Of a DNA stretch of 64,000 nucleotides, positions 2,765 through 61,184 are shown piece by piece (positions within the stretch are counted from its first letter, which is position 1; every line of letters begins with the position of its first letter). The notes beneath the pieces were generated by a model. It ran no database searches. It worked only from the letters and a program-made list of their open reading frames with translations, and was not told the origin of the DNA. The stretch is from IMG/VR virus record IMGVR_UViG_3300050011_000164, positions 1 to 64,000 of that record. One strand, given 5' to 3'. Position numbers and translations under genes: made by a program. This stretch comes from a virus.

Positions 2765-2835
2765 GTCTGTAAGCGGACTTCTCATTTCTTAGAAGGGCGG
2801 TACTTGTGGGACTCGGATATGGTACAGGAGTGGGC

Positions 2836-17600: not shown

Positions 17601-20600
17601 GTGAAATAAGACTCCGCATCGGCGGTCTTCAATAAAGACCCAAACTTCGGTGTTGGAATGACCTTGATTGCGTTCGCGGGGATGTCGCCAAGGTAAGCAA
17701 CTTGACAACTGTATTTGAGGCTTACTTCCCACGGCACAAGTGCCCAATTGTCGCCGTACTCTTCTTTTACCCACGGTTCGATGTCGCCACTGTAACGCTC
17801 CCAAACATCGGGGAAATCGTAGTCATCTGGACGGAGCAAGTCTTGGCGCAGGTTGCTGACCGTGATCTGAAGGATGATCCAGTTCTCGGGCTTCACCCCT
17901 TTGTGCCCCGCGTAGTTGGCTGCTGTCGTTTGATCGCAGGCGAGATACGTAGCTTTCTGCCACTCGATGTTGCTTTCGTTGAATTCAACACGCAACCCAC
18001 CATTCAAGATGGCGTCGAGATTCTTTTTGTCGGTGCCGTGATACAGGTATTGCGGAATCGGGAAGGGTTCCTCGGCAGCCCGAGCCGTCTTCTCTTCATC
18101 TGGGAACAGCGGGTTCTCTTCTAGCTGTGGGAAGTCCTGTCCGCCAATGCCTTTCTGTCCACGCATAGGTAGGTTCTTGGAATCGTCGCCGTAAGCCACG
18201 ACCGTTTTCTGGATTGGCTTCCTGTAGCCATCCCCATATTCGATACCCACTAATCGAAGCTCGGCACCTGCCACAACTGTGATCTCATTCTCCTCCTCGT
18301 TGAGCATGTTCGCGAGAAGAGTTGCATCCCAATCCACGTCGGTTGAGCGCAATACCTTGGCTTTCAGGATTACAGTTTGAGGATTCTTCGGGTGCGGACC
18401 ACCTTGATCCCACATTGACCCCGAACCAAAGTACGCATCGGCACTATTTTCAACCCACGTCCAATAGACACCCGCGTGCTCCAAGTTCGGCTGCGTGCCA
18501 GTCTCGACTTGAACCGCACGATAGATGGTGATGGGGAAATCCACCGTGCTGAAGTGAGCGACGTTCTCGTCATAGCGGTACCCAGCCTCGTTGAAATCGT
18601 CAGGCTGGTACATCGGGTTCGCATCACACCAGTTGTCAAACGGCATGGGCTTGAAATTCTGAGCCCCGGTCTTGAACAAGGCGGGCGAAAGAGTTTCGAG
18701 TGACGGTAGGTCTTCTACACCCTTTACACACTCGGGAATGTCGGCGTAGGCATTCGTCTCCTCGCCCATCTCTGGATTCTCATACTGCGTATCGCTCATC
18801 GGCGGGGTTTTGTGTGATGCCGTGATTTCCCCCTGCTCAGGATCAAACTTCCCCGTGTTACCCGTAGCCGACTTGATCTGATTAGCTTCAAACACAGCGT
18901 AGTTCACCGTACCGAGTTCGATCAGGATCACGCCATCGTGTCCCATTTGCTTGATGTAGTTTATAAAGCCCGGGAGTTCCAACACCACCCAATTGCCCTC
19001 TCGAATCTGCTTCATGAATGCCTGTCGGTCGTAGTTGGAATAATCCTCGGGTACGAGTTCCTCGGGCGTCTTATTTGTGGCGTCTGCAACCAGACGCTCG
19101 TACTCATAGTCTCCTTCGCTCCAATTTGGCGAGACTTCCTCCAGCCAATCCAAGGCGGTGCTCTGACCTTCGTCGGTGCGGAAGTCAAACGGGTCTTCGA
19201 TCTTCAAGTACACGGGCATGACGTTTCCGCCCGGGTCCTTATTTGGGGACGAATAGAGACTGGCAAACTTCGGGTCCGTACTGAAGAATGCAAGATAGTC
19301 GCCGCTATACTCCTTCTCGAACTTCTGAATATCGGATGAAGGCGTGCCGTGGTACACAATAAGAGGGTTACCATGCTTGTCCACGACTTTCGAGGCACCG
19401 AACCACGCCTTAAATTCAGGCGTTTCGGTAAACGGCTTCGTTGGGTTTTTGACATTTTTGGTCGGCTTATAGGCTGCGGACTTAAGAGGTTTGCCAAAAG
19501 GCACTCGAACCTGACCCCCGCCCTTCTGTGATAAGGTGATGTCGTTCACTTCAAATGTCACACCCTCAACCCAATCCAACCCATCGTACTTGGCGGCAGC
19601 TTCGGGCTTGACATAAGCAAGCGTCACGTGCGGCTTGTAGTCGAAGTCATCCTTGCGGGTGCTCATGGCCTTGTTGACCATATCGTGCAGAACTTCAAGC
19701 TCAGGAGCGTGCGCTTCAACTACAATGGGAGCCTGAGCATCAGAGCTTTCACTCACCTCGAATACATGTGTTTTGCCCAGCGTAACGGTGAACGGCTTCT
19801 GATCGGCGACGACTTGGCTGAGTAAGGCTGAATCAGCTTTGATGCCGTACTTGATCGTGATGTGAGCCTCATCTTCCCGCCCATCCTCGCCAAGCTCCTC
19901 ATCAGGAATCTGTGTAGCGGCTTCGTACATCTTAGCCGCAGCATCAGGCGACAAGTTGATGTGAGCCGTCGCGTTCTTGTGTGGACCTGAGTTGGCTTCC
20001 TTTGCACCCTCGATAGCATCGAGTTCGTCCTGTATGGGGGAGCAAGCGAATTTCGCCATCGGAGCATTAGCCCAGAGGTCTTGGAGCTTCTGTTCCTGTT
20101 CTGGAGTACGTGGGAGATTCCATCCCGTGTACTGCTTAATTCGACCTCGCCCTTTGGTGAATACGGAGTCCGTTGTCTTAACCAATTTGAATTCGCCCGA
20201 AGCCCAGTCAATCCCATCGAGGTACGCCATAGCCTGACGGCTAAGCCCCACCGCCCATTGCCAGCCCAAACGTTGCTTGTGCCGCCCGTACACGTAGTTG
20301 TTGAGCAGGACAAAGATTTCCTTGCCCTGATCGTCCACTACGGTGTCCTTATCGGATTTCTCTGTCACAAAGTCCGCACCGTATTTTGCATCGAAACGCT
20401 TGGCGACTTCTTTCCACTCCTTGCCGTGTCCATCTGGCCCAAAAATGTTTTGATACCGTTTGTAGGTTTCGTAACCGATTTCCAGAAGTTTTGGCTTGGC
20501 AATGAGCAAGGCGACTTCATGATGACACAGTTCATGGGCAATAACGCGACGGAGGGTCTCCTCATGCCCCAGAACCTTCTTCTGAATTTCCAATGTGGTA

Positions 20601-42740: not shown

Positions 42741-44870
42741 TTAAAAACGGCGTCCCTTGCCTCGGGATACCCTGTGGCTTCCGCCGCCAAATTTGAACTT
42801 GCTCATCTGGTACGTGCGTTCCGCTTGCTTCAGGTCCATCATGCTCATAGCATCGATATTGAGGATCGGCTTATGCGGAAGTGCCTGCTGTCGCTGCATG
42901 ATGAGGCTCTGCCCCGTAGGGTCCATTTTCAAGTGACCCTCATCGATTAGCCATTGCTGAACTTGCATGGCGACAAGCATGACCGCATCCACCATGTCGT
43001 CGTGGGCTCCCTTTTCCAGAGGAGCGTGAACGCGGATACGGTACTTGGCAACCACGTCGGTCTCCACCATCTTGATTTCGTGGATGAACTTCGGCACGTA
43101 CGGAAAATTAGCTGTGTGGTCATTGATGAATGACCGTAAAGCGTAAGCCATCTCCGAGTTGATCGCGGGGGTGAGATTCACCAATTCCATGTTATGGACT
43201 TCATTTTGCTCCAACAAAGTGATAAGCTGACGACCTGCGTGTTGATCGGTTGAGCCCTTAAAACAGGGAAGGATTTTGTTCATTTCCTTCAACCAGAGTA
43301 GGATGTCACCTACGGGTAAGAGTTGGAAATCCTTGTACTTGATACCGTCAGGAGTTTGAATGACAACCCCCGGACCTTCGAATTGCTCGCCAGCAATCAT
43401 ACGGTCGATGTAGTCAAACACTAGGTGGAAACCGTGGGTTAATCCGGGTGTTGGATTAGCGGCTTGACGAACCTCAAGGTGCCCAATCGCCAATGCCGAA
43501 GCGTCGGGCCTAGTATTATCGGGATCAGTGACGTTCACACCGCCAAGATCAAGGCCCCAGAAGTAGTTAAAGCCCACTTGATCGCCATTGAATCGCGTGG
43601 TGTTTAGACGAACGCTCGCACTGGGTAAAGGTTTGCCCATGCTGTCCCACGCACCTTCAGGCTTACCATTCACCAAAACATCCGTGCAGGTTATGATATC
43701 GATGGATCGAACGAACGATTCCGTAGATTCCAAGAATTGTCCGCCGTACTCAGCCCTGAACGTGATGGGGTTCTTACGAGCTTTGTCACGCAAGAACCCT
43801 GCCTTCAATTTCGGGTTCATTTCTGCCGATGAACAACTGAGGGCAAAGGTTGGGTTATCCTCGTTGATACCATCTTCCATCGCCATACGGTAGAGATCGT
43901 ACATCATACCGACTTTCTTCAATGGCGATGAGATGCTCAGAATCAATGAATCCTGAATTTCGACTTTACCATCCGTGCCTGCGGGTTCCACGTGGTGGAA
44001 ATCGCCCGTCTGGTGAAAGTCGGCCTCGTCGATGATGGGGGCGGATTCATCGTGATGGAAGTCGCCAGCGGCAGGTGTAGCAGCATCGTACATATCTTCA
44101 GACGTAGAACCTATCTCGGAACGGAAGTGAGCGAACTCATCAAGAGCGAGGAAGAGAGATGACGGACCACGGACAGCGTTCGTAGTACAGGGTAACGACA
44201 CGACTTGAACAGACGGCTTGGCAGCAACCTTGTGATGACGGTCAGCCTCGCAAGTGAACGTCAGGTTTTTGGCGTTGTTGTCCTTGATGTAGGTATGGAA
44301 CCACGTTGCACGAGTGACGGCAGCCTGAAGCTTTTGGAACAAGCGACCTGCGCCCGTTTCGTCCTGAGCCAAGAAGGTGAAGTCTATCTTTGAGCCCTCA
44401 GCCAAACCGAAGAACTTCTGCGGCGAGTTGATGCACAGCGTTAGGTAGAGCTTGTAGGCGGCAATGGCCGCAACGGCTTCCGATTTACCGCCACGACGAC
44501 CACAGAAGATAACCGCTTCGTTAAAACCTCTCTGTGGTATATCTCGCCAGTCTCCGACGTTGCAGCGTCCCTCTTCGTGGACGATATGGAGATACTCTTC
44601 TTCCGTGACCGTGCAGATCAGTTCATCGCGGAAGGGGTTCCACATCTCCACCATTCCCCAGTTTTCGATGGCGTCAGCCCACTTGGGACGATAATCAAAC
44701 GGGACGGCGAAGAGTGCCTTGATGAGGACTCGCTGAACGGGACGCAGGACGATACCCGTCCCTCCCGGTCCTTCAATGAAATCAATGGCATTGATCTTCC
44801 TTGTCGCATCAGGCAGGATGTTGTCTGCGATCTTTGTCCAAGCTGTATTTTTGACTTTCTTATCAGCCAT
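42741..44870 (-). CDS. terL: terminase large subunit
   Basis: LRPVQ adenine-binding motif, Walker A GRRGGKS, Walker B LALDEFAH, ISS coupling motif, nuclease GLDLG and HDDMVDA. Start MADKK at 44870 follows the promoter-like motif. Confidence 0.9.
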   Translation of the reverse strand: MADKKVKNTAWTKIADNILPDATRKINAIDFIEGPGGTGIVLRPVQRVLIKALFAVPFDYRPKWADAIENWGMVEMWNPFRDELICTVTEEEYLHIVHEEGRCNVGDWRDIPQRGFNEAVIFCGRRGGKSEAVAAIAAYKLYLTLCINSPQKFFGLAEGSKIDFTFLAQDETGAGRLFQKLQAAVTRATWFHTYIKDNNAKNLTFTCEADRHHKVAAKPSVQVVSLPCTTNAVRGPSSLFLALDEFAHFRSEIGSTSEDMYDAATPAAGDFHHDESAPIIDEADFHQTGDFHHVEPAGTDGKVEIQDSLILSISSPLKKVGMMYDLYRMAMEDGINEDNPTFALSCSSAEMNPKLKAGFLRDKARKNPITFRAEYGGQFLESTESFVRSIDIITCTDVLVNGKPEGAWDSMGKPLPSASVRLNTTRFNGDQVGFNYFWGLDLGGVNVTDPDNTRPDASALAIGHLEVRQAANPTPGLTHGFHLVFDYIDRMIAGEQFEGPGVVIQTPDGIKYKDFQLLPVGDILLWLKEMNKILPCFKGSTDQHAGRQLITLLEQNEVHNMELVNLTPAINSEMAYALRSFINDHTANFPYVPKFIHEIKMVETDVVAKYRIRVHAPLEKGAHDDMVDAVMLVAMQVQQWLIDEGHLKMDPTGQSLIMQRQQALPHKPILNIDAMSMMDLKQAERTYQMSKFKFGGGSHRVSRGKGRRF

Positions 44871-44890
44871 ATATAAAAGGAATTGGTAGT
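44871..44890 (-). promoter_or_regulatory. promoter-like motif ACTACC-AATTC-CTT-TTA-TAT abutting the terL ATG
   Basis: Directly precedes ATG 44870. Confidence 0.6.
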
Positions 44891-44907
44891 AGGAGGATTT
44901 GGGGAGG

Positions 44908-45081
44908 TTATTCGCCGCGTTCGTACTTGCAGCCTTCACAGTCGAGTGGACAGGGGGTGGGCACGTAGCAGGTATCACAGATGAAGTATTTGGTGAAATC
45001 TTCGCCGAAGAGTTCGGCCATAATCTTCAACTTCTTTTCGAGGTCTTCGTCGAGAGGATTATCGCATTTTATACAGTTCAT
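44908..45081 (-). CDS. 57-aa Cys-rich (Zn-finger-like) protein
   Basis: MNCIKCDNPL...ICDTC..PCPLDCEGC; below the ORF-track cutoff. Confidence 0.55.
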   Translation of the reverse strand: MNCIKCDNPLDEDLEKKLKIMAELFGEDFTKYFICDTCYVPTPCPLDCEGCKYERGE

Positions 45082-46314: not shown

Positions 46315-49300
46315 TCATTCTTTCGTGCCGCATATAAAACTGTATGTCGCGATCAAGCTCTCGGTGTCGATGTCATCGATACGGACGAAGACTTCGTACA
46401 CGTAGCCGCCCTCTTCACCTTCGTGCCACACCGCACCCTGAGCCGAGGAGCTATTGATAGCGTCCTTGATCTCGCTGTCGGTGAGCTTGTTCATCAGGTA
46501 CTTCACGCGGCTCGCCTGATTGTAGATATTGAAACTCGACAAACCTTGCGGCTGTTCGACCTGAGCCAGTTGGATTTCACCCTTGCCCGGGACTTGGTTC
46601 AACATCGGACGGTAGGTGACCTTGAACAGTGCCACTAGGGTAGCCGCAATCTCACCGCAGACGTACTGAAGGAAGATTGAGAACTGCTTGGCTTCGTCGG
46701 CACCTGCGACCTTGCCCAGCTTCAGGCTCTTCAGATAAGCTAGTGCGGAACCCGGACGTACAAACCCTGCGGCTTTGCCGCTTGCGAATGCTTTGCCCGG
46801 CACCCCCGTTTGCTGACCGTAAAACTCGTCCGTAAACATCATACCACGGATGTCATTCTCTTTGCGGAGTGGAGCACCTTCGAGCACTTCAGGCTTGCCA
46901 TCACGACCGATGCCAGCAGCCGCAGCGGGGCTGGTGCTGACGTAGGCGATGATGGTGGTGTCAAGAGCACCTTCGAGAGCGGCTGCAAGAGCTATCTCCT
47001 CTGGAACTTCGTCCTTGTCACCAACGATGTCGGGATACTGCATCGGGGTGTTGGTCTGGTTTGGATAATCCACGAGTTCATGCTGAAGCTCGGGGGCGAT
47101 TTCGCGAAGTACCTGACCCGGGAAGAAAAAGTTGAAGCCTGCTTCCTTTTCGATCTCTTCGGGAGTCTTAGCCGCACCTTCGCCCGCATGAACTGGGGGA
47201 AGTCCTGCCGCTTCTTCTTTGTTGTATTTGTCCACGGAATCAATTGCTCCTTGTTCGGAATCGCGGATTCCGATGAATTGCTTGCCCTGATTGACCTGCC
47301 AGCGAGTGGGGCTAACCTGATCGTATGTGTATGGTTCTGCTGCTGCTTTCTTCACGCCCTTACCTCCTGCCATATAGTCCTCGTCATCCCAGCGCAAACC
47401 GTGCTTAGCTAAGATTTGCAAAGCTTCTTCTTTGCTCGGCCCGCCCATGACACCCAGCATCGCTGGGTTCATCTTGAGGGAATCGATTGCGATGCGAAGC
47501 TGGTGCTTCTCAGGTACGCTCATGGCAGCCACTCTTTTCAATACTGCGGTTGCTGTCCTGAGGGATTCCATTTTGATGCCCATGTTGTCCAACATCTTGT
47601 CGTCCTGCTTATTCGTCTGTGGGTACTTGTCGGGGTTCTCCGCACGCTCGGATTCCATCTCCGCAGTGGCGATCTCTTCCCAGTTAACTTCATTTGAGGG
47701 CTGTTCCCAATCGCTCTGCCCACCCGCGTCGTACCACATGTTCGTGATACTATCGACGAAATCACGAGCCTTGTTGCCGCTCGGCGATTTCACCACGCCT
47801 TCGAGTTGCTCGCGTTCGTGCTTTCCACGCTCACCACGGGCATTCTCGGCGTTCTCCGCATAGAACTTCTTACTCTGCTCACCGAACTTCTTGAAGAGGC
47901 GGGCGAACTGACCTGCCAACTCCTTCGGGGTCATTTTCTTCTTCAAGGCATTACGAACCAAATTGTGGAGCGTCGTAAGCCCCGCCGAGTCGTTGTTAAT
48001 CATCAGGGCAGTGTGACCTGTGATCCAATCGTCGTAGCCGAAATGGTCCGCCGCCATCTTAGCCAAGCTCATCATGCTGGCTCCCTTAGAGGGCTCCCAC
48101 TTTACAGTGCAACCTGCGGGACAATCCACTGGGTCCTGTAGCCGACCTTCATACGTCCCATCCGCAGCATACGCCACTGGAACCATCGGTGGCTGGGGCT
48201 TCGGCGGTACGGGCGACGGTGGTTGACCCTTCATCTGGCGGCTACGGTTCTGCGAGATGATCTGGTTACGCTCCTGTACCAACTTCTGGTACTCGGCGTA
48301 TGACGTTGCTGCCAGTTTTGCGGAGGCGTGCTGCGTCATGTACCGCTTGTAATCGTTCGGTCCCTTTTCCTTACCACCCCAGTATGCGTCGGCATCCGCC
48401 AACTCTTCGGAACGCTGGCGGCGAAGTGCGGGACTGTTGGGGTCCTGTTTCGTCTCAGACGGCGGATGCTGAATGGTCTGCTTCTGATACGGCTGCATCT
48501 TCCACAGGTACTTTTCAACAAGCTTGTTGACTGCCGCTTCAGGTTTGGGGATCGCAGCGTACTCCTTACGGAAACTGTCCGCATCCGTCCCACGAAGAAC
48601 GTACTCACGTCCATTCATGGTCAGCAGCATGTGGAACCCCTGCTCATCCTGACCCTGTGCCACGTTAATTGCGGCGGTACGAACCATGTGCAGATATTCC
48701 TGCCCAGCCTGCTTGAGGTTTGCCTCATTGAACAAACTTGCGTTCTTAAGAAATGCCGCCTTGAGTTCGTGGTATGTGGCGATCTTTCCCTTGCCGTATT
48801 TCCCGCTCAGGATGTCGTCAAGCTGCTGTTCGGTAATCTTGAAATAATCCATGCAAGACTGACGGCCCATGCCCGAAGTGTACTGACCGCGAACCCGAGC
48901 AACTGTGTCGGGACTGGGGGCAGCGCCTTCGAACAGGCTTTTGTGGCCTGCGTAACCTTCTTGCGGACGCTCTGCGTGCTTTTCCATATTCGGGGTTGCT
49001 GACAAGCTCGTACCTCCAAACATACCGTTAGCTGAAGTGTTTTCCCTCGGGTGCTGCTTCTCACCACCGATAGGTTGTTCTTTCTTACCTGCCTCGATCC
49101 CACGACGCGCATACTCTGGTTCACGTGCAGGAGGAGCCGCTGGCGGCATACTGGATACGGCTTCGGAGCCACATGCAGCGCATTGTCCCCTTACACTGAG
49201 TTCTCCCTCGTTGCCGCAATTGAGACATTGCCATTTTTCCCGAGGCACTTCGGATGCGATGTTGATGATGATTTGAGTCCCGGGTTTAGCGGTGACTTCT

Positions 49301-49656
49301 TGTGCGGCGGCGTTGTCCTTGACTTCTTTGTCTCCATAAGGACCATCGCCCCTAGTCGCCATCTCATCTTCTTTCTCTTCGATGGTTTTACCGATCTCCA
49401 TCTCGGCCTGAGCTTCGATGGCATCTCGGACAGCGGAAACATTCTGGCGTTCAGGCGAACGAATTTCGCCGTCGAGTACGCCTACGCCGCTTTCGTCGTG
49501 GGAATTACCCACCAACTCATCGTTACTCGGCCCAGCTTCCGCCGTAGCTTCGGGGGTTGCTGGTTCGAGCTTCTGAGACAGATCATCGTCGCTGTGCATT
49601 AAGTCCGCCCCAACCCTGCGGGCGGCTTCACGCAACCTATCGATACTAATTGGCAT
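46315..49656 (-). CDS. large multi-module probable head/internal virion protein with KxA linkers
   Basis: Start MPISID; repeated KHAE, KIAT, KNAS, KQAG, RTAA, KLAA, KMAA, RVAA, KAAA, KEAG, KVAG; lies near terL. Confidence 0.6.
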   Translation of the reverse strand: MPISIDRLREAARRVGADLMHSDDDLSQKLEPATPEATAEAGPSNDELVGNSHDESGVGVLDGEIRSPERQNVSAVRDAIEAQAEMEIGKTIEEKEDEMATRGDGPYGDKEVKDNAAAQEVTAKPGTQIIINIASEVPREKWQCLNCGNEGELSVRGQCAACGSEAVSSMPPAAPPAREPEYARRGIEAGKKEQPIGGEKQHPRENTSANGMFGGTSLSATPNMEKHAERPQEGYAGHKSLFEGAAPSPDTVARVRGQYTSGMGRQSCMDYFKITEQQLDDILSGKYGKGKIATYHELKAAFLKNASLFNEANLKQAGQEYLHMVRTAAINVAQGQDEQGFHMLLTMNGREYVLRGTDADSFRKEYAAIPKPEAAVNKLVEKYLWKMQPYQKQTIQHPPSETKQDPNSPALRRQRSEELADADAYWGGKEKGPNDYKRYMTQHASAKLAATSYAEYQKLVQERNQIISQNRSRQMKGQPPSPVPPKPQPPMVPVAYAADGTYEGRLQDPVDCPAGCTVKWEPSKGASMMSLAKMAADHFGYDDWITGHTALMINNDSAGLTTLHNLVRNALKKKMTPKELAGQFARLFKKFGEQSKKFYAENAENARGERGKHEREQLEGVVKSPSGNKARDFVDSITNMWYDAGGQSDWEQPSNEVNWEEIATAEMESERAENPDKYPQTNKQDDKMLDNMGIKMESLRTATAVLKRVAAMSVPEKHQLRIAIDSLKMNPAMLGVMGGPSKEEALQILAKHGLRWDDEDYMAGGKGVKKAAAEPYTYDQVSPTRWQVNQGKQFIGIRDSEQGAIDSVDKYNKEEAAGLPPVHAGEGAAKTPEEIEKEAGFNFFFPGQVLREIAPELQHELVDYPNQTNTPMQYPDIVGDKDEVPEEIALAAALEGALDTTIIAYVSTSPAAAAGIGRDGKPEVLEGAPLRKENDIRGMMFTDEFYGQQTGVPGKAFASGKAAGFVRPGSALAYLKSLKLGKVAGADEAKQFSIFLQYVCGEIAATLVALFKVTYRPMLNQVPGKGEIQLAQVEQPQGLSSFNIYNQASRVKYLMNKLTDSEIKDAINSSSAQGAVWHEGEEGGYVYEVFVRIDDIDTESLIATYSFICGTKE

Positions 49657-52600
49657 CTTCCTGCTCCACAACTAAGTCCGCCAGATCACCGATACCGAGA
49701 TCGATTGGACGTTCCTCGTCTTCTTCGTCGCCATAGCCTGCACACGCTGTGTGTGCATTCAGTGCGTCGGTGCCGAGTTCCGCGACAATCTCCAGAGTGT
49801 TCTGAAGTTCATCCACGTTATCGCCCTCTTCGTAAAGCTCACCATCTACGAATACTTGGTAGCCGTCTGTGAAGGTCAGGACTTCGACGCGGCTGTCGTT
49901 GAGCATGAAATGCCCCGGCTCGCCATCGTCACTCCAACCCATACCCACCAGCGTCTCGACATACGGGAATTCCCCGACTTCGGCTGGCATTCCTGCGGCT
50001 GCTTCTTTCGTGTCGTCCGCCGCGTCCTCGTGTGGTGGTTGTGGCTTCTGTGGTTCCACAGGAGCGTCACCGCGTAGTTCTGGTTTCGTCTCCAAAGGCG
50101 TATCATTGCCTTTTAACTGATCGTCTTGTGATTCAGGCTTCGTCGCCAGAGGCTTGCCCTTTGACTGATTGCCCTGTGGCGCAGCCAAGTCACCCTGTTG
50201 ACGATTGTCGCTGTCAACGCCCGGAGAAACGGCATCCGCTGCCTGTTCAGGGTTGCGCGGAGTTCCACGTCCACCCCCGCCGCCTCCACCGCCGCCAGAG
50301 CCTTCGCCCGTGCCGCCAGTTCCATCAGAACCCGGTCCATCGCCGCCCGGACCCGAACCGCTGTCCGTATCGACGGTAGATGCACCGCCCGTGCCGCCGT
50401 TGTAGATGATGATGGTGGGGGTTTTAGGTTGCACTCCACCAGCAGGTTGACCAGCGGCTTGTACACTGCCGTCTTCACCGCCGCCTTCGTCACCACCCGC
50501 TGAGTTTGTGCTCGTTGGTGCAATGCTCACAGTTCCACCCGTGCCAGCCCCGCCTGTTCCCGTGCTGGTCGCCGCACCACCCGTGCCAGCCCCGCCCGTA
50601 CCTGCACCACCCATGCCGCTACCTACGCCGCCAGTTGATGCACCGCCCGGACTTGAACCGCCAGTTTCGGTTGATGTTTCGTTGCCAGAAGTTTCCGAGG
50701 TTCCATTACCACCCGCACCCGCTGGTGCTGCTACGGCTGCTGGTGCTGGTGCTGCTGGAACCGCTGCTGGTGCTGCTGCTGGTGCTGCCGCTGGAGCTTC
50801 AGCCTTCGCGGGAGGAGTAACGGCGGGCTTATTCTTGCCCTTCGTCTCATCAGGCTTGGCTGCTGGTTCATCTTCAGCTTCGGGTTTCTCGTCAGCTTCA
50901 ACTTCAGGCTTCTCGTCATCTGCCTCAACGGGTTCTTCCTCATCCGCCGAGAAATGCTCAGGGTTGACCGTCTTGGTCGCACGTGAGTCATTCGCCAAAT
51001 CTTTCTTGGCTCCATGGTCGAGTTCCGACTTGGCTTCGGAGATATCCCCCGAGATGTCCGCCGAGTTCATTGTCATACGGTCTGTTTCAGCAATGTCCTG
51101 TGCGTAAGCATTATCGGCTTCGCGCTGAGCTTGAACATACGCTTCTGTTGCAGCTTCCGCTTCTGCCGCAAACTCAGGGTAGACCTGACCCGATACTGGG
51201 TCGATGTGCTCTTCACAGTCTTCCGCTGGTATCTGGCAGATTGCACAGAAGTCTTGTGCGCCTGCTGGCGGTTCATCGTTACGGCTGATGGCGGTCTTCT
51301 GAGAAGAACGCTTACCAGCCTCGCCTACGGACTCCGTGGGCTGCTTGATGTCCTTGTCAACGGTGTCTGGGTTGACTACTTCGGACTTCGCTTCCGAGAT
51401 GTCCCCCGAAATGTCAGCCGCGTTACGACGTGTCAGTTCACGAGCATCGCGTTGACGCTGCGCTTCCAGACGTTTCGCACGCTCTTCATTGGTTTCTTCC
51501 GCCACATCACCCTCTACCTTGAACATCGGCTCTTCTTCCTTCGACCACGTAGCCAACGGGTTCTGGTAGGTGCCGTCGTTCGGGTAAACCGCAGCTTCAG
51601 TTGGGTCGAAATGACCAATCAGATGCTCGTTGTGCCCGCCGGGTTCCATGCTCTTGAGCAAAGCTTCCATATATCGTGCGAGGTTCGCATCATTTGGCTT
51701 ACCTGCACCACGCTGTTGTCCGTAACCCTTCACGTCCCACGCAGCATCGGTCGAGCCCGGAATACGAATGACGTACTTCGGTGTAATGGTACGGCCAGCG
51801 GTCTTGCTGATATCAGCGTCCGTCTTCGGAAGGATGGCACCGTCGCCATCAGCTTCGTTTGCAGGATTGTCGGCGGTGTCCGCCGTCTTTCCCTCACCGA
51901 AGTAAGATGCGAAGTCATCCTCGGCGTAATTTGCCGTCTTTTCGCTCGACGCCAGAATCGCGTCGTCAAAGTTGGGCTCCATCTGCTCTTCCAGAGTGAT
52001 GTACTGAGTGTTCTCTCCGAAAGGAACGTCGCTCTCTTCGAAGTGACCATTCTTATCGCGACAATCGCCATTCCAACCGAGTCCGAGTTTCTCGGAGGTC
52101 GTCAAGGATGGGTGTACGCCGCCGCAGGCACCGCACTCGTAGAATACTGCGGGTGCCGTTGCTTGAGCTTCTTCCATCTGATCCAATGCCGCGCCATTTT
52201 CGTCAGCGAGGATGGAATCGAGTCCAGCGAAATGCTCATCGTCTTCGTCGTAACCGTTATCGAACGAAGGCTCCGCAGAGCAGCATGGATCATCCTCGTT
52301 CACGGTGCTGCCGCATTCGAAGCACTTACGCTGCTTTACCCAACCCTGTTGGTCGGCGTCCCAGCGAGAATTCTGGTTGGGGCAACCTGTTTCGTGAGTC
52401 GCAACACCGTTGATGCTCAACATCTCGCACTGGTCGCAACGAACACGCTGTCTGGGGCGAGCATTAGGTGCAGCCGTCTTGGAGTCTTCTTCCTTTGGCT
52501 CTTCCTTCTCTTCCTTTGGCTCGTCCTTCTTCTCGGACTTACTCTTGCCACGGTTCTTCGCCCATTCGGATTTAGAACCACCCTCGGACTTTGTTTCTTT

Positions 52601-55300
52601 CGAGTCCGCCGATGCTCCGTCGTCGCCCGTGCTGGGCTCGTCCTCTTCGGACTTGGTGGTATCGTTCTCAAGAGCCTCTTCCACCTTTACGGTCGGCTCT
52701 TCCTGATCGCCCTTGACCTGCTCGGGAACGTCGCTCTTCGAGTCCGCACTCATCTCTGGAGCTTCGATCTCGTGCTGCCCTGTGGTGGACTTTTCGTTGT
52801 CCTTACTCTCGCCCGGAAGTCTAATCTCGGGTGCAGGCCCCATGTCTTCCATCGTCTCGGACCAAATGTCGTCGATATCCTGAGGAACATCGGCGAATTT
52901 CTTACGCTGAGACGAATACTTGCGGGCCATCTCTTCTTCACGCTTCTTAGCCGCCGTGACGGAGTGCTGCGAGCGAGCATCGTAATCCTCGCCGCCAAAC
53001 CCGCCGCCAATCAAACTGGCAATGTAGGATGCGTCGTTTTGCGAAGCCGTCTTCTTGGACGCCTTCTTGGAGGAGATCACGGGTGGAACCTGCCCACCCT
53101 TCTGATCCTGTCCGTGGTCGCGTTCGCCAGCGTCTTCTGCTCCGAACTGATAGATCATGTCATCGTCACCGACGTAAATGTCCACGTTACCCCAAGCCTT
53201 GGAAGCCTCGGTCAAGCCATCGCCCGTTGTCGGGTAATCGCCATCCCAATAGCCCGCTCCGTGACCGCAGCGGGTGAGCCAGAAATCATGACCCTGACGG
53301 AAGTCGTCCTGACCATCCTGTTCGGATGCCGCAGCCAAAAGCTCGGCATTCTCCGCTTGGAACTTAGCGCAATCTTCGGTCATCGCCTGCAAGCAGGAGG
53401 GAGCGAGATCGCGGATATCGTAATTCTGATCCAATGGCTGTCCACCGCTTGGATCGGACTCGTCATTCGAAGACCACAGAGCGGTCTCGATGTAGCCACG
53501 AGTGAAGTTGTCGAATTCAGCGGCGACCTTCTTGGCAGTGCCCACCCACAAGGAGGAAGCCTGCTTCTTGCCTAGCCCGCCCCACTTGGCGGCGTCGAAA
53601 GATGCGTGATGATCCTTCAGAGCATCTTTGCCCTGACGAGCCTGACTCACGTTCTTCTTCAAGTGCTCACTGATGGCTTCGGGATCGTCCTCTGCACCCT
53701 TCTTCGAAGACGAGATCGACAAAGGAGTCGGCCCATGCTTCCCTGCGGCGATCTCCTTCTTGTGATCGGCTACCGCGTGATGAGCCTGATTATCCTGACT
53801 CATGCTGGCGGCGTATTCCTTCATCTTGTCGGCATGTTTTTCGAGAGCCTCTTTAGCCTCTTTACCGCCTTTGCGGACTCCATCCAGTACCGCACTAGCG
53901 GATGCGCTCAAATCGCCAGCCTGAGTTTGTGCCGCGAGACGTTCAACATCCCCCGTACAGGTCAGACCCTCAACACGCTTCGCCTGCTTGTCAGCGGCCC
54001 TCTTGTCGTACTGAGCCTTGACTTCGCCAGCCCATGGACCCGGATTCTTTTCCTCGTACTTCTGGATCGCTTCCTTTATGTTGCTCGCCCATGTCGTGCT
54101 TGCAACATATTTGCCGCTAACGAAGATATCGATCTTCGGGAAATCGCGACGGTCGCCGTAAGCGGCGGACTTTCCCTTACGCTCTTCTTCTGGACGGCGA
54201 GGTACGCCAGTCTCATCGAGAGCGATGCCAATTGGTGCGCTGTTGATGACGGCCTTCGGCGTGTCCTTCTCGTCCTTGTAACCTTCGGTGCGCTGGTTAG
54301 CTTCGTCGTGAGCTTCGGTGCCGGGGCCAACGTTCGTAATCGGGGTCTCGAATACCGCAGTGGCGGAACCCTTCTTGACGCCCTTGTTGCAGAACTTGCA
54401 GCCATCGCCTTCGCACTTGTCGCATTCCTGAGCCGCAATACGGGGAACCATTTCGCCCTTTGTCGGAGCTTTACCTTCGGAAGCGTTTTCAACGCCCTTG
54501 GTGCCGCTTGGCATGATGCTGTTGCGGAGAGCCGTGTCCAAAGATTCGAACACGTCCATCTCCTGAGGTTCTAAGACAGCTTTGGTAACTTCGTCGGCGG
54601 TCTTGATGGTCAAACCGAGGCGGGTTCTCTTCTTCGACCCTTCCTTGGTGAGGAGCGGGTATTCCTTCAACGGATTCTCAGCCAAAGCGGGGAAGTTCAT
54701 CTTCGGCGTGATGTCCGTGACATCGAACTTCGAGGTCTCCACATCGGTCATCATGGCATCGAATGCCGAGGACAGACGGGGGTCGAAGTACGAACTGAAG
54801 ACCAAATGACGGGTCAGGTTTGCAAGCTGGTTATCGTCTTTCGGGAATTGGAAACCGATGTACTCACGCTTGTTAACCCAGTTAGGAGCGAACAGGATGA
54901 GGGCGGCGAACTTACCATCTTCGGAGCCGAACAACTCTTCCTTAATCGACGCATAGGACGCCTGAGAATATTCATCCCATTCGGTATCACCGATTTTGTG
55001 GGAGATCATGTCGCCAATTTCCTCACCACCAAAGGTGCGAACAAGACAACCATAGAGCAGTGCGGTCGGGAAGTCCTGCCCCTTCTTGTCAGCAACCGAG
55101 GGAGGGACGATGTAGATACGACCGATGGCAATGTTCTGACGAAAGCCCTTGTAAAAAATTTCAAAGCTTTGGACGTTGCCCGAACTACGGGCTTCCTTCT
55201 CGCCAGCCTTAATAGCTTCGACAGTTTTGCTAAGCAACCCATCATTGACCATGAAGGACTGGAAAGACTTTAATGCGACTGTGTTTCCGCTCTGAGCCAT
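49646..55300 (-). CDS. 1884-aa multi-module probable virion polyprotein with KxA linkers, Zn-ribbon modules and Gly/Ala-rich tract
   Basis: KTAD, KSAA, KRAA, KQAS, KVAA, KTAS, KFAD, KTAA, KTAN, KTAG, KTAI, KEAA; ADISGDISEAKSE occurs twice; several CxxC modules. Confidence 0.65.
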   Translation of the reverse strand: MAQSGNTVALKSFQSFMVNDGLLSKTVEAIKAGEKEARSSGNVQSFEIFYKGFRQNIAIGRIYIVPPSVADKKGQDFPTALLYGCLVRTFGGEEIGDMISHKIGDTEWDEYSQASYASIKEELFGSEDGKFAALILFAPNWVNKREYIGFQFPKDDNQLANLTRHLVFSSYFDPRLSSAFDAMMTDVETSKFDVTDITPKMNFPALAENPLKEYPLLTKEGSKKRTRLGLTIKTADEVTKAVLEPQEMDVFESLDTALRNSIMPSGTKGVENASEGKAPTKGEMVPRIAAQECDKCEGDGCKFCNKGVKKGSATAVFETPITNVGPGTEAHDEANQRTEGYKDEKDTPKAVINSAPIGIALDETGVPRRPEEERKGKSAAYGDRRDFPKIDIFVSGKYVASTTWASNIKEAIQKYEEKNPGPWAGEVKAQYDKRAADKQAKRVEGLTCTGDVERLAAQTQAGDLSASASAVLDGVRKGGKEAKEALEKHADKMKEYAASMSQDNQAHHAVADHKKEIAAGKHGPTPLSISSSKKGAEDDPEAISEHLKKNVSQARQGKDALKDHHASFDAAKWGGLGKKQASSLWVGTAKKVAAEFDNFTRGYIETALWSSNDESDPSGGQPLDQNYDIRDLAPSCLQAMTEDCAKFQAENAELLAAASEQDGQDDFRQGHDFWLTRCGHGAGYWDGDYPTTGDGLTEASKAWGNVDIYVGDDDMIYQFGAEDAGERDHGQDQKGGQVPPVISSKKASKKTASQNDASYIASLIGGGFGGEDYDARSQHSVTAAKKREEEMARKYSSQRKKFADVPQDIDDIWSETMEDMGPAPEIRLPGESKDNEKSTTGQHEIEAPEMSADSKSDVPEQVKGDQEEPTVKVEEALENDTTKSEEDEPSTGDDGASADSKETKSEGGSKSEWAKNRGKSKSEKKDEPKEEKEEPKEEDSKTAAPNARPRQRVRCDQCEMLSINGVATHETGCPNQNSRWDADQQGWVKQRKCFECGSTVNEDDPCCSAEPSFDNGYDEDDEHFAGLDSILADENGAALDQMEEAQATAPAVFYECGACGGVHPSLTTSEKLGLGWNGDCRDKNGHFEESDVPFGENTQYITLEEQMEPNFDDAILASSEKTANYAEDDFASYFGEGKTADTADNPANEADGDGAILPKTDADISKTAGRTITPKYVIRIPGSTDAAWDVKGYGQQRGAGKPNDANLARYMEALLKSMEPGGHNEHLIGHFDPTEAAVYPNDGTYQNPLATWSKEEEPMFKVEGDVAEETNEERAKRLEAQRQRDARELTRRNAADISGDISEAKSEVVNPDTVDKDIKQPTESVGEAGKRSSQKTAISRNDEPPAGAQDFCAICQIPAEDCEEHIDPVSGQVYPEFAAEAEAATEAYVQAQREADNAYAQDIAETDRMTMNSADISGDISEAKSELDHGAKKDLANDSRATKTVNPEHFSADEEEPVEADDEKPEVEADEKPEAEDEPAAKPDETKGKNKPAVTPPAKAEAPAAAPAAAPAAVPAAPAPAAVAAPAGAGGNGTSETSGNETSTETGGSSPGGASTGGVGSGMGGAGTGGAGTGGAATSTGTGGAGTGGTVSIAPTSTNSAGGDEGGGEDGSVQAAGQPAGGVQPKTPTIIIYNGGTGGASTVDTDSGSGPGGDGPGSDGTGGTGEGSGGGGGGGGGRGTPRNPEQAADAVSPGVDSDNRQQGDLAAPQGNQSKGKPLATKPESQDDQLKGNDTPLETKPELRGDAPVEPQKPQPPHEDAADDTKEAAAGMPAEVGEFPYVETLVGMGWSDDGEPGHFMLNDSRVEVLTFTDGYQVFVDGELYEEGDNVDELQNTLEIVAELGTDALNAHTACAGYGDEEDEERPIDLGIGDLADLVVEQEDAN

Positions 55301-55315
55301 GCTCGTTCCCCTTCG

Positions 55316-55858
55316 TTACTTCTGTTTGTTTGTGCCGATGTTTTCCGCTTCGCGACGAATGCGGAGTTCGTTCATTTCGATTTGGCTACGGAATTGCTTG
55401 ACGTAGCTGGTAACCGTGTGCTCGTCCCAGCCCATGGAGCGGAGAGCTTCAACGCCCATCTGCAACCACTGGCCAGCGACGAACTGGAACTTCTCGCCAT
55501 CGAAGTTGATGAAGTCACGCTTCGCTTGATTGTCCATCTCAATGATTTGGCGACCAAGTTCACGGACGCCCTTCAGTTGCTCGCTGAGACTCTTGATGGC
55601 GAGATTGGCATCCATACCTTTAATACCCGAGGTTGGATTGTCCAGATGTTCGTTCATGCCGTCCAAAATCGACGCCATTTCGAGGGCGATGAGTTTGCTG
55701 AGTTCCGCCTGACTGATATTCGTGTCTTCGATCTTCGTCCGAATCTCATTCAGTTTGGAGCTAAGCTCACGCTTGCCCGGTTTCTTGACTTCCGCCGCCG
55801 CGTTGTACTTTCCTTCCAGATTGATCACCAGTTCTGTACGCTCGGTTTCGTTGCTCAT
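55316..55858 (-). CDS. helical hypothetical protein
   Basis: 180-aa ORF coupled to upstream gene (TAATG). Confidence 0.65.
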   Translation of the reverse strand: MSNETERTELVINLEGKYNAAAEVKKPGKRELSSKLNEIRTKIEDTNISQAELSKLIALEMASILDGMNEHLDNPTSGIKGMDANLAIKSLSEQLKGVRELGRQIIEMDNQAKRDFINFDGEKFQFVAGQWLQMGVEALRSMGWDEHTVTSYVKQFRSQIEMNELRIRREAENIGTNKQK

Positions 55859-57789
55859 TACTCTATGTCTCCCATCTCAAAATGATTCCCCATCCGGGTA
55901 TCATCAGCCCTGTCCTTGTTCATCTCAATGTCGGCCATCTTCGTGTCGCCCGGACGCCCTGAATTCGGCATCAGATCAAACTCCGCAAGAATTGTACGCC
56001 CATCCTCTGGCGCACCTTCCCCAACCTTGTGATTGGATGATGTTTTGTCCATACCGGGGAAGCTCAATAGAGTCCCACCCGTGAGACCACAATGCATCCC
56101 CTTGCGATACGTGCAAGAACCGCATTTGTGTGCTCCAATAATTGGATTGTGATCGGCGAGCTTGTTCTTGAGGAACGTGCAGTCGATCTGACTCAACGCA
56201 ACCTTGATCGGCTTGCGCTTCAGACTGGCGATGAATTCCTTCACGGCCTTGCTTGCCTGAGCGGTGCCAAACTTGGACGCTGCCTGCTTGTAAATCTTTT
56301 GTAACGAGTGCCCCTTCTTATGATACCGTTCGATGACGCTGGCATCGAGTTCAGGCTTGCTCGCACGATGTTCGTGACGCACCTGATCTGGGTTGCTCTC
56401 GTGGAATCCAGCGTGCGGAACACGGGAAACATAATCAGCGGACGCTGCTGACTTGTGCTTCGCCATTACCGCCGAATGTGTCACACAGGATGCACACTTT
56501 GCACCCGCCACGAAATTCTGGTTGTGCATCCCGGACTTTGCGAGAAATTCCGCATCGACCTTTGCGAGAACAACCTGTCCGTTGACATTTGGTTTCAGGC
56601 TACCGATGAACTCACGCAATGCCTTGCCTGCCGCATGTGCACCGAACCGCTTATCAGCCGCACGGAAGATAGCCTTCAGTGAGTGGCCCTTTACGTGCAA
56701 CGACGCGATGTGCGAAGAGTCGAAGTCCGTTGCAATCACGCGGCCTACACGCTTCGCCTGCGCTTCCACGCTGCCGAGGCTCGGGTGACGAGAAACGGAT
56801 GAGCTTGTCTTCGGGGCGATAGGCATGGAGCTTACTCTCGTGCCTGAATTGTCGTTGGCGATGTTCACCAACGCCGCCCGTTTCTGGTTGTTAGGCGTGC
56901 CCGGTGTGAGCTTATTCACAATGGGCGTAAGCTCAGCCGTGTTCGCTACAACGGGTAAGTGATAGAGATCACAGGTCTTAGAGCTACCGTTCTTCGAGAA
57001 ATACTGACATCCTTCACATGCACTGATCTGCTTTACGGATGCAGCCCGTGGTGTGACGCCTGCTTTCTTCCACTGCTCGTGCTGGCGGACGCATTCGTTA
57101 CTCGTACTGCCGTGCTTCTCTCGTTCATAAGTCGGGGAGTTCTTGTCCATGTAGGTATTCGGCTCAAGGAACGCCATGCCAACCAACCCAGCGTTTTCTT
57201 GCAGGTATTGAGTCGCCATCTGGTGATTGAACAATTCGATCTCAGCCAGCTTCTTGAGCTTCGCAGCGATCTTCGACGGTGCCATACCCTGATTGAGCAA
57301 GCTGTGGACGTACTTCTGAACCTGTGCATCTGACACGTTCTTCTTCTCGACCTTGCCAGACGAAGCCGCTGATTCCAGCGTTTCCGTAACTTCGGCGAAC
57401 AATGAGTCGTCATCGCCCAGCTTCGTGCTGTAGTCTTCTGGGTGCTGGGTTGCCTGCACACGCCAGTTCTGGTTGGAGCCCGCCACACCGCTGATGTGCT
57501 GATCCTTAGCCGCCATGCGATCCATGTGGGTGCCACGTGCACGTTCAAGACGGTCTTGTTGAGCGTTCTTTTCAGCGGAGCCCGTGCGACCCGGCCATAG
57601 CGGAGTATGTCTGCTGGCACTCTCAGCTATTTCATCCATGAACTCTTCATCGACGAACTGGTGGGAGCGATCTAACTGTTCTTCACCTGAGCCTTGTGCA
57701 TCTTTCAAGCCGAGGTCCTTCCAATCGGGCTCGCGGTCGTCCAAGAATGCGTCAACGATGCTGGTGTACGGTTTCTTTTCTTCTGCCAT
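55858..57789 (-). CDS. Cys-cluster protein with internal repeats, probable virion/assembly protein
   Basis: Start MAEEKK; repeated units H.KGHSL..I...A...FG...A.KA..EFI.SLK...GA.KC.SC; KxA-type linkers. Confidence 0.65.
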   Translation of the reverse strand: MAEEKKPYTSIVDAFLDDREPDWKDLGLKDAQGSGEEQLDRSHQFVDEEFMDEIAESASRHTPLWPGRTGSAEKNAQQDRLERARGTHMDRMAAKDQHISGVAGSNQNWRVQATQHPEDYSTKLGDDDSLFAEVTETLESAASSGKVEKKNVSDAQVQKYVHSLLNQGMAPSKIAAKLKKLAEIELFNHQMATQYLQENAGLVGMAFLEPNTYMDKNSPTYEREKHGSTSNECVRQHEQWKKAGVTPRAASVKQISACEGCQYFSKNGSSKTCDLYHLPVVANTAELTPIVNKLTPGTPNNQKRAALVNIANDNSGTRVSSMPIAPKTSSSVSRHPSLGSVEAQAKRVGRVIATDFDSSHIASLHVKGHSLKAIFRAADKRFGAHAAGKALREFIGSLKPNVNGQVVLAKVDAEFLAKSGMHNQNFVAGAKCASCVTHSAVMAKHKSAASADYVSRVPHAGFHESNPDQVRHEHRASKPELDASVIERYHKKGHSLQKIYKQAASKFGTAQASKAVKEFIASLKRKPIKVALSQIDCTFLKNKLADHNPIIGAHKCGSCTYRKGMHCGLTGGTLLSFPGMDKTSSNHKVGEGAPEDGRTILAEFDLMPNSGRPGDTKMADIEMNKDRADDTRMGNHFEMGDIE

Positions 57790-57793
57790 AGGT

Positions 57794-58414
57794 TTATGCC
57801 GCAGCCGAAGCTGCTTTCCCCTTCTTTGCATTTGAAATCGCCATCTTCCATTCCGTAGATAATGCTCCACGTTTTCCAACACGAAGACGATTCCGATTTG
57901 CTATCCGCTGTGCTTGTGCTGCCCTACGTTCGGGAGTCCATGCAGCCCGCATCGCTGCTTTCATTGCGGCTTCCACTTCTTCGGCGGGTTTAACCGCAAC
58001 TATTTTTTCGGTCGATGATGCCCAAGAGCTAGGTTTTTCAACTGTTGCGCTGTGACAGGTCTTCCTTTACGCTGCTCACTCCAAAGCTGTCTTGTTCTTT
58101 CCGAAATAATCCGGCCCACAGTTCCCTCACCGCCCAGCGTCATGTTGTAGCCGTTCTCAACTTTATGACTTTGATGGAGAACGATGAAAAAGGTCTCCAT
58201 CTTGGAGAGTTCATCAGCGGTCTTGGCACGATAAATCACTTCGGACCTTGAAGGCATCCGAGCCGTACTTGCGAATAGTGCGGCATAGGTAACGATCCCC
58301 ACCCCGTCTCGCTTCGCGAACGTGCTGTTGAAAACGAGCGTCTGCCTCATCTCCGACATATTTGCCGATGTAGACCCCACCGTTGATTCGATTTGTGAGC
58401 TTGTAAATCAGCAT
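57794..58414 (-). pseudogene. GIY-YIG homing endonuclease with NUMOD3-like repeats, two frameshifts
   Basis: MLIYKLTN.ING.VYIG..RFQQH..IRKYG..F, then frame change to EVIY..E.FFI..GYNMT.GGEG, then return to the first frame (AAWTPERR, AISNAKKGK). Extra C near 58243 and a missing A in the A6 run near 58005. Confidence 0.75.
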
Positions 58415-58415
58415 G

Positions 58416-58731
58416 TTAGAACTCGATATCGTCAAAAGCACCCATAAAACCCATAGGGTCGTTTTTAGGGGCGGCGGCGATTGACTCTCCATTGTCTACC
58501 TCATCGCCAACTAGCTTTATGATACTGTTTCCTTTTACTTTCCAAAAATCCCGAGTGCTCGGTGATTCATATATATTGCCAGCTACTCGTTCCAGTCCCA
58601 TGCTGGCGATCTTTTGCTTGAGGGCGGGAGGTATGGGGGTGCTGGAAATGAAGTGGTTGACCGTGAAAACGCTGGAATCAGCGGACTTTTGAGCCCCCAA
58701 CCCAAAACTTGACACCGCACGAAGCTTGCCC
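58416..58731 (-). CDS. small hypothetical protein
   Basis: MGKLRAV...DFWKV; motif ACTACC-AAACG-CTT and SD GAGG upstream. Confidence 0.65.
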
Positions 58732-60310: not shown

Positions 60311-60434
60311 TTCCCGCCGCCTATGTAACCCGGCTCTTGCTGGGTTTGCGGGCATGGCCGCTCGCTGGGACTGTCATGACAGTTTTGGCACCTTGCACGG
60401 GCTGCGGCTGGCGGGCATTAAGTCGCAGCCTTTT
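60311..60434 (+). ncRNA. candidate ~120-nt small RNA
   Basis: Promoter-like motif at 60291-60310, hairpins AACCCGGC/GCTGGGTT and ACTGTC/GACAGT, terminator GGCTGCGGCT/AGTCGCAGCC-TTTT; no credible ORF. Confidence 0.4.
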
Positions 60435-61170: not shown

Positions 61171-61184
61171 GCCATCCCCTTTGT

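Follow-up and report, generated by a model that had tools for sequence, protein, structure and literature searches.

The stretch of DNA analysed here, hereafter the window, comprises the first 64 kb (positions 1 to 64,000) of the 84.7-kb contig of an uncultured jumbo phage (IMG/VR record IMGVR_UViG_3300050011_000164). We focused on a group of genes lying upstream of the gene encoding the large terminase subunit (terL; 42741..44978, minus strand; matches to phrog_2, phrog_17415 and phrog_9), and in particular on a protein of 1884 amino acids (aa) that carries repeated Lys-x-Ala (K-x-A) tripeptides. An earlier note on this DNA had pointed to four open reading frames (ORFs) of 1884, 1118, 674 and 105 aa near terL; they all exist, and all lie on the minus strand. 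Read from the 105-aa end, the order is the 105-aa gene, a homing-endonuclease-like ORF, the 674-aa gene, a 180-aa ORF, the 1884-aa gene, the 1118-aa gene, three small ORFs and terL. The 1884-aa protein (P0001; 49646..55300), a candidate cargo polyprotein, is made of a conserved N-terminal domain (N-domain) followed by variable cassettes, and contains 8 K[TS]A sites. The 1118-aa protein (P0002; 46315..49671) has a conserved N-terminal end, a variable middle and a conserved C-terminal domain (C-domain). The conserved 674-aa protein (P0003; 55858..57882; true start likely Met32) possesses an internal duplicated segment and one KSA, and the 105-aa protein (P0004; 58416..58733) a KSA at residues 16-18. 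The 180-aa ORF located between P0003 and P0001 (55316..55858, minus strand) is conserved and devoid of K-x-A.

The nearest isolate is the Tunturiibacter phage Tunturi_5 (PP885688), a 309-kb myovirus whose host is a soil Acidobacteriota (PMC11924767). Its terL is 40% identical to that of the window, for which no near-identical DNA was found among cultured phages. The order P0004, P0003, 180-aa ORF, P0001/P0002 and terL is common to Tunturi_5, where it reads gp347, gp348, gp349, gp350 and then, across the record origin, gp1 (terL). The position beside terL is also conserved in three loci in which both genes turned up, L009, L013 and L015 of the related records G001, G002 and G004. These loci have the two-gene form (1884-aa type plus 1118-aa type) as well. 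The Tunturi_5 orthologue, gp350, is a single gene of 1080 aa with 2 KTA; its N-terminal end matches residues 3-262 of the 1884-aa protein (39%) and its C-terminal end matches residues 842-1117 of the 1118-aa protein (45%). Because gp350 joins the N-terminal end of the former to the C-terminal end of the latter, the two genes of the window (about 3000 aa together) read as an expanded version of one ancestral gene type. It is worth noting that gp350 is annotated as a 'DarB-like antirestriction protein', the DarB protein of P1 carrying methyltransferase and helicase domains. No such content appeared in the 1884-aa and 1118-aa proteins, which gave no Pfam family at E <= 0.01, and the Pfam and NCBIfam scans of all four proteins yielded 0 families. 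The PHROG scan of the four returned phrog_1915 and phrog_20867 alone, both on one and the same module of the 1884-aa protein.

Cassette architecture of the 1884-aa protein

The 1884-aa protein was compared with 24 strong full-length relatives retrieved from a search of 5.8 billion proteins (one marginal match was left out), which are encoded by contigs of up to 456 kb. Its modules, all of them on the minus strand, are as follows. The putative carrier N-domain (residues 1-235; 54596..55300) occurs in 23 of the 24 homologues and ends in KTA 233-235, an exact KTA being found at residues 229-243, directly after this domain, in 21 of the 24. Its AlphaFold2 (AF2) model is weak (predicted local distance difference test, pLDDT, of 54), with KTA 233 in the low-confidence tail, and no convincing fold match emerged from PDB Foldseek, VIA-align wide searches or BFVD (best Z 6.8, to YkuJ 2ffg). 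The following module (residues 236-379; 54164..54595), which has a CxxC...CxxC ribbon and is present in 20 of the 24 homologues, ends in KSA 377-379, and many BLAST block ends fall at residues 374-381. Then comes the module 380-435 (FPKIDIFVSGKYVASTTW...; 53996..54163), flanked by KSA and KRA and present in 3 of the 24 homologues. The phrog_1915 module (FTRGYIETALWSS...GHDFWLTRCGHGAGYWDG; 53045..53521) is preceded by KVA 591-593 and ends in KTA 750-752, and the segment 804-943 (DVPQDIDDIWSETMEDMGPAP plus an acidic tail; 52472..52891; 11 of the 24 homologues) is preceded by KFA 801-803 and ends in KTA 941-943, the homologous block of Tunturi_5 gp350 having a KTA in front.

The zinc-ribbon cassette (residues 944-1123; 51932..52471), the core of which (953-1010; 52271-52444) reads RVRCDQCEMLSINGVATHETGCPN...CFECG...CC, is followed by two short acidic peptides, each lying between two KTA sites. 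The first one, of 17 residues (NYAEDDFASYFGEGKTA; 51881..51931), is found as three tandem copies in the homologues P0005 and P0006, where each copy ends in KTA or KSA. The second one, of 28 residues (DTADNPANE...ISKTA; 51797..51880), is present in 12 of the 24 homologues and as three tandem copies, each ended by KTA, in the homologue P0008. The next cassette (residues 1169-1337; GRTITPKYVIRIPG...; 51290..51796) starts directly after KTA 1166-1168 and ends in KTA 1335-1337. The C-terminal part (residues 1338-1884; 49649..51289) comprises an DISGDISEAKSE repeat, low-complexity sequence rich in Gly/Ala/Pro/Thr and, after a KEA, a C-terminal domain (1768-1884). All the modules quoted in the earlier note, including the CxxC ribbons, were thus recovered in this protein.

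Three side features of this gene deserve mention. An element of about 40 residues, (A/S)ADISGDISEAKSE..., occurs in two copies at residues about 1289-1451 (50948-51436); after the N-domain it is the block most widely common to distant homologues, several of which carry multiple copies, and in P0013 it follows a KTA. The low-complexity stretch (residues 1494-1767; 50000-50821) is a long Ala/Pro region and then a Gly/Thr/Ser region, with a run of ten Gly. Finally, an 853-aa antisense open frame (51014-53575, plus strand) overlies the GC-rich low-complexity part of the gene and is probably not a gene.

A comparison of cassette content among relatives, as suggested in the earlier note, shows that it varies: no module of the 1884-aa protein occurs in all 24 homologues, the number ranging from 2 to 23, and the same KTA-bounded slot is filled by different cassettes in the homologues P0007, P0008 and P0013. 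Of the 174 BLAST block ends, which come from related sequences and are hence not independent, 17% fall within 3 residues of a K[TS]A, versus 3% for random sites, a proximity reached by 0 of 2000 random placements. These sequence comparisons support the cassette nature of the 1884-aa protein.

Three of the cassettes have free-standing relatives. First, residues 594-717 match phrog_1915 (E = 2.3e-24) over nearly the full length of the profile (positions 7-139 of 141), and the match begins directly after KVA 591-593. A tblastn search with the 1884-aa protein gave matches, anywhere along its length, in 261 cultured-phage records; among the 25 of these 261 that were listed, all but one fall on this module, and those carrying a feature label are separate genes of about 130-140 aa. 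The ESM Atlas, queried with the module 594-740, returned unnamed viral clusters only (0.83). Second, a phmmer search with residues 753-1340 against 1.84 billion representatives gave 395 matches, the best 150 of which comprise 145 new proteins, 119 of them of at most 200 aa. Within this best 150, the Cys/His zinc module (about 947-1022) accounts for 113 of the 119 short proteins. Of these 113, 109 have an initial Met, 46 enter the alignment within their first 12 residues and 56 show a coverage of at least 60%; their alignment (A3) displays 8 conserved Cys/His columns. Using a single free-standing protein as the query, we also found complete small ORFs of 54-211 aa with the zinc module in 8 of 9 IMG/VR loci, on viral contigs of 11-99 kb. 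In the window genome the match is the embedded copy (52262-52462), and no free-standing copy was found besides the embedded one in the records G000-G004.

Third, among the phmmer matches listed, four proteins of 93-134 aa start with MGRT.TPKY or MGKTITPKY and align, from their own residue 2 or 11, to residue 1169 of the 1884-aa protein, directly after the Ala of KTA (KTA-GRTITPKYVIRIPG, the hyphen marking the joint). Since the free-standing N-terminus MGRT.TPKY is the sequence that follows KTA in the polyprotein (KTA-GRTITPKY), a cut after Ala would recreate that N-terminus, a coincidence which suggests that K-x-A is a cleavage site. A tblastn search of cultured phages with the free-standing zinc-module and GRT-module proteins gave no match. 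For residues 236-593, no free-standing homologue was found, a word-based search giving 11 fragments of the same family only, and none was found for the FPKIDIFVSGKYVASTTW module 380-435 (ESM Atlas score of 0.75, nothing usable). The suspected resemblance of the modules to stand-alone small phage proteins is thus borne out for three of them (594-717, ~947-1022 and 1169-1254), these searches giving no support for the FPKIDIFVSGKYVASTTW module or the other parts of the region 236-593.

The Lys-x-Ala motif in the window and in head proteins of relatives

The recurrence of K-x-A had been correctly noticed: the tripeptide occurs 24, 14, 12 and 2 times in the 1884-aa, 1118-aa, 674-aa and 105-aa proteins, respectively, versus 15.1 +/- 3.6, 9.0 +/- 2.7, 6.0 +/- 2.3 and 0.7 +/- 0.8 in 500 composition-preserving shuffles per protein. 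As a bare motif it is weak against these shuffles, and the strong signal is KTA. In an unbiased tripeptide scan, KTA was the top over-represented tripeptide of the 1884-aa protein taken together with the 4132-aa polyvalent protein of the window (16 versus 2.47 expected; Poisson P = 8.8e-9). The latter protein (8669..21067, minus strand), endowed with ART-PolyVal, SprT-like, PARP/Tpt1 and 2',5'-RNA-ligase domains, lies 25 kb from the 1884-aa gene and bears the same K[TS]A code (9 KTA and 3 KSA). The 1884-aa protein has 7 KTA versus 0.9 expected, the remaining 20,305 aa of the contig have 2 versus 6.0 expected, and a single KSA occurs in each of the 674-aa and 105-aa proteins. The enrichment extends to relatives, with 108 KTA versus about 15.5 expected (summed) in the 24 homologues of the 1884-aa protein, and 151 versus 24.1 in the relatives of the 1118-aa protein.

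The codons at the sites differ, with 6 distinct 9-mers for the 8 sites of the 1884-aa protein and 10 for the 12 sites of the 4132-aa protein; therefore the signal appears to be selected at the protein level, and a DNA-level motif or DNA recombination site at the joints is ruled out. In alignments of close homologues, the orthologous sites keep K and A while x varies (KTA/KIA/KLA/KMA/KVA/KSA/KQA/KHA). In the 1884-aa protein, this concerns the columns 745 (KKA/KMA/KTA), 941 (KTA/KMA/KEA) and 1166 (KTA/KSA/KHA), as well as KFA 801, which aligns with a KTA of Tunturi_5 gp350; in the 1118-aa protein, it concerns 452 (KLA/KIA/KTA), 538 (KMA/KIA/KTA) and 987 (KVA/KTA/KIA). Because K and A persist at orthologous sites while x changes, the K-x-A formulation is probably right, with Thr preferred as x; composition statistics can detect the KTA subset of K-x-A only. 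The 153 non-redundant KTA contexts taken from both families (relatives of the 1884-aa and 1118-aa proteins) show small residues upstream, with Ser enriched 5-fold at P5, and A/G/D/S at P1'.

We then considered the related records G001-G004, chosen as holding an orthologue of the 1884-aa protein. Each of them encodes one PHROG 18299 head-maturation protease and one PHROG 2522 capsid protein. The capsid proteins of G001-G004 start with MANLSRTQQQTAMLGQLL-KTA-GGRQKL, KSA replacing KTA in Tunturi_5 gp334, and in all five this is the sole K[TS]A, at residues 19-21. An aligned K[ST]A is also present near residue 33 in 5 of the 5 proteases, which have a K-x-A near their C-terminal end too. On both sides of the protease gene lie scaffold-like ORFs, coiled-coil or acidic, which count among the most K[TS]A-enriched ORFs of the whole records (4 KTA versus 0.21 expected in G001; 8 K[TS]A versus 1.28 in the complete 463-kb G004). 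A similar rank is reached by the P0001 orthologue and by a giant protein (3341 or 3883 aa). A motif common to the capsid junction, the protease termini and the scaffold-like proteins, as expected of head-protease substrates, was thus found in G001-G004 and Tunturi_5. In Tunturi_5, the top three KTA ORFs are gp348, an ADP-ribosyltransferase protein and the head protease. The PHROG 18299 protease has distant relatives in phiRSL1, BcepSauron and cluster-C-like mycobacteriophages. As a side remark, Tunturi_5 gp90 (L003:47360-48589) is labelled 'major head protein' and matches AAA/BCS1 ATPase families, the PHROG capsid match being gp334.

Proposed processing in the head, alternatives and known systems

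From these data, the 1884-aa protein stands as a cassette polyprotein with K-[T/x]-A joints, as judged from its sequence. We further consider it likely that K-x-A is a head-maturation protease site, and that the 1884-aa protein, and probably also the 1118-aa and 4132-aa proteins, are cargo polyproteins of the jumbo-phage head. The conserved N-domain (in the case of the 1118-aa protein, the conserved C-domain) would take a changeable string of cassettes into the prohead, a carrier role that we suggest by analogy with T4 targeting sequences. A head-maturation protease of the PHROG 18299 type would cut after the Ala of Lys-x-Ala, with a predicted preference for Thr at x, small residues at P4-P6 and A/G/D/S at P1'. 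The cassettes and the short acidic peptides would be freed as separate products and kept in the capsid, from which they may enter the host with the DNA. The cleavage, the enzyme responsible, the head location and the delivery are all proposals, the latter two suggested by the motif shared with the capsid, protease and scaffold-like proteins of relatives, and by synteny; the article describing Tunturi_5 (PMC11924767) contains no passage on mass spectrometry or structural proteins.

Several observations weigh against this reading. Neither the capsid gene nor the head protease gene is on the 84.7-kb contig, and therefore the motif link rests on relatives, where the capsid protein is so conserved that its kept KTA adds little. 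The class of the protease is putative, following from its PHROG 18299 'head maturation protease' match and from the annotation of others: as regards a possible kinship with the T4 gp21/herpesvirus assemblin-type serine proteases, the Tunturi_5 enzyme, the one that was scanned, gave no Pfam match, and no PDB sequence match was found. The bare K-x-A enrichment is only 1.6-2.6 standard deviations above the shuffles for the four proteins, and the non-independence of the block ends has been mentioned. K[TS]A is absent from the 1118-aa protein, whose block ends show no significant link to K-x-A (14% versus 9%, p = 0.17). An avoidance of KTA outside the substrates, hinted at by the window contig, is unsupported by G001 and G004, in which KTA is not depleted from the remaining proteins (22 versus 14.5 and 57 versus 37.6, respectively, the substrate sets having been partly chosen after the counts were seen). 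Lastly, the genome-wide KTA signal of Tunturi_5 is weak (39 versus 28 expected; P = 0.002 for the best single ORF among 376 ORFs).

The modest enrichment of bare K-x-A, together with the location of the sites within small-residue-rich linkers, would also suit a motif that is not cut at all, being part of Ser/Ala/Lys-rich flexible linkers or a joint left behind by cassette recombination, in a protein working as one long multidomain chain; the N4 virion RNA polymerase (vRNAP) is packaged uncut (PMC5512222). We regard this possibility as unlikely. It leaves unexplained that KTA is the single most enriched tripeptide, that it occurs at residues 19-21 of the capsid protein and near the N-terminus of the protease, and that a cassette starts exactly at the Met of a free-standing protein; as for recombination, the varied codons do not fit a DNA-level site. 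Somewhat less probable still is that the joints are cut not by the head protease but by a zincin/SprT-like metallopeptidase (MPTase), embedded or encoded nearby, which may act once the proteins have been ejected into the host. Autoprocessing of polyvalent proteins by an MPTase has been proposed by Iyer et al. 2017 (PMC5512222), and there are SprT-like regions at residues 119-227 of the 4132-aa protein and in a 132-aa ORF (21104-21502), both below the Pfam cut-off; yet neither the 1884-aa nor the 1118-aa protein contains a peptidase domain (0 Pfam families), and such an enzyme would not account for the same motif at the capsid N-terminus, in the head protease and in its scaffold-like neighbours. 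That the proteins are not capsid cargo, being intracellular polyproteins or tail or surface proteins that happen to adjoin terL, appears very improbable: their head location is a deduction and neither conserved end domain has a recognisable fold, yet the motif is common to the capsid, protease and scaffold-like proteins, and the place beside terL is conserved in Tunturi_5 and in L009, L013 and L015.

Processing by the head protease has parallels in other phages. The prohead proteases of phiKZ (gp175) and T4 (gp21, acting on internal proteins, Alt and internal peptides) process head proteins. In SPN3US, the prohead protease gp245 is described as recognising an A-x-E motif, with 14 mapped sites in 9 substrates, this one motif marking capsid, portal, protease and ejection proteins (PMC10052503). 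Similarly to the head processing of SPN3US, T4 and phiKZ, one short motif would mark the capsid, the protease, scaffold-like proteins and internal or ejected proteins, the propeptides of those phages being removed in the prohead. The differences are fourfold. First, the site is Lys-x-Ala, with a predicted cut after Ala, in contrast with the A-x-E of SPN3US, cut after Glu. Second, the sites are many, with 8 K[TS]A in the 1884-aa protein and as many as 11 in one relative. Third, the pieces between the sites are not one propeptide and one mature protein; they are cassettes that can be exchanged and have free-standing homologues, along with short peptides in tandem. Fourth, the protease of the relatives belongs to PHROG 18299, and its Tunturi_5 member has no Pfam match.

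The other parallel is with polyvalent proteins, which Iyer, Burroughs, Anand, de Souza and Aravind (2017) proposed to be packaged and processed into units, and likened to RNA-virus polyproteins, with a proposed embedded metallopeptidase (PMC5512222). The 4132-aa protein is a textbook member (ART-PolyVal), and the 1884-aa protein likewise brings several unrelated domains together in a single polypeptide, three of its cassettes having solo versions elsewhere. Unlike polyvalent proteins, the 1884-aa and 1118-aa proteins lack catalogued effector or peptidase domains (0 Pfam, 0 NCBIfam), the cassettes are tiny (17-180 aa), and the joint motif, common to the capsid and the protease, points to the head protease and not to an MPTase. 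Both the idea of polyvalent-protein processing and the processing of giant-phage head and ejection proteins by prohead proteases are already published; what differs here is the Lys-x-Ala joint, the many joints per chain, the tiny exchangeable cassettes with free-standing relatives, the tandem acidic peptides and the occurrence of the same code on a classic polyvalent protein. No phage head-protease site of the Lys-x-Ala form was found in full-text searches, the coverage of which leaves out most subscription journals.

It is conceivable, if slightly on the doubtful side, that the Lys-x-Ala slots constitute a general plug-in system, in which small genes inserted between joints are loaded on a common carrier domain and released by the head protease with a near-native N-terminus, the same code serving to process giant polyvalent effector proteins. 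One gene would then arm the virion with changeable mini-proteins and multiple short acidic peptides, with a prohormone-like logic. If the head-protease proposal is true, Lys-x-Ala would be a readable code predicting capsid cargo and cut positions in this clade of soil jumbo phages, it would give a concrete answer to how phage polyvalent proteins become units, and it would make small uncharacterised phage proteins candidates for the first proteins entering the host. The cultured relative Tunturi_5 makes bench tests feasible.

Other proteins and side observations

The grouping of all four proteins into one K-x-A-punctuated family stands for the 1884-aa protein, is weaker for the 1118-aa protein and is not convincing for the other two. 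Within the window, the 1118-aa protein is a related and much weaker polyprotein case, as far as its sequence tells. Its K-x-A at 452, 538 and 987 are aligned with KTA in relatives, and the sequence EKEA-GFNFFFPGQ (KEA 842; the hyphen again marks the joint) precedes the conserved C-domain in nearly all of them. This C-domain (residues 845-1118; 46318..47139, minus strand), present in 55 of 56 homologues, is homologous to the C-terminal end of Tunturi_5 gp350. Its AF2 model is mediocre overall (pLDDT 60), reaching pLDDT >= 70 only from about position 161 of the 288-residue model (= residue 991), directly after KVA 987-989; no convincing fold match was obtained with PDB Foldseek, two VIA-align wide searches or BFVD (best Z 4.1). 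The 674-aa and 105-aa proteins appear to be conserved neighbours without convincing punctuation: the K[TS]A sites of P0003 are few and not conserved in position, and the KSA of P0004, kept in 3 close relatives, reads RAN in G004. Between these two genes, the 126-aa ORF with weak homing-endonuclease matches (58000-58380, minus strand) is absent from the gene order of Tunturi_5.

In the 4132-aa protein, the K[TS]A at 99, 529 and 993 are just outside domain borders, and the site 732 is inside the end of ART-PolyVal. A 490-aa protein (21513-22985, minus strand) combines a polyvalent-type inorganic pyrophosphatase domain with a RelA/SpoT alarmone-synthetase domain, and has one KTA. Elsewhere in the window, we noticed a phage ORF with a TonB C-terminal domain (40104-40844, minus strand; E = 5.9e-22), as well as a phage-encoded ClpB-like AAA+ ATPase, a truncated-looking UDP-glucose dehydrogenase and a 775-aa triple glycosyltransferase (2806-3990, plus strand, and 60433-63512, minus strand).

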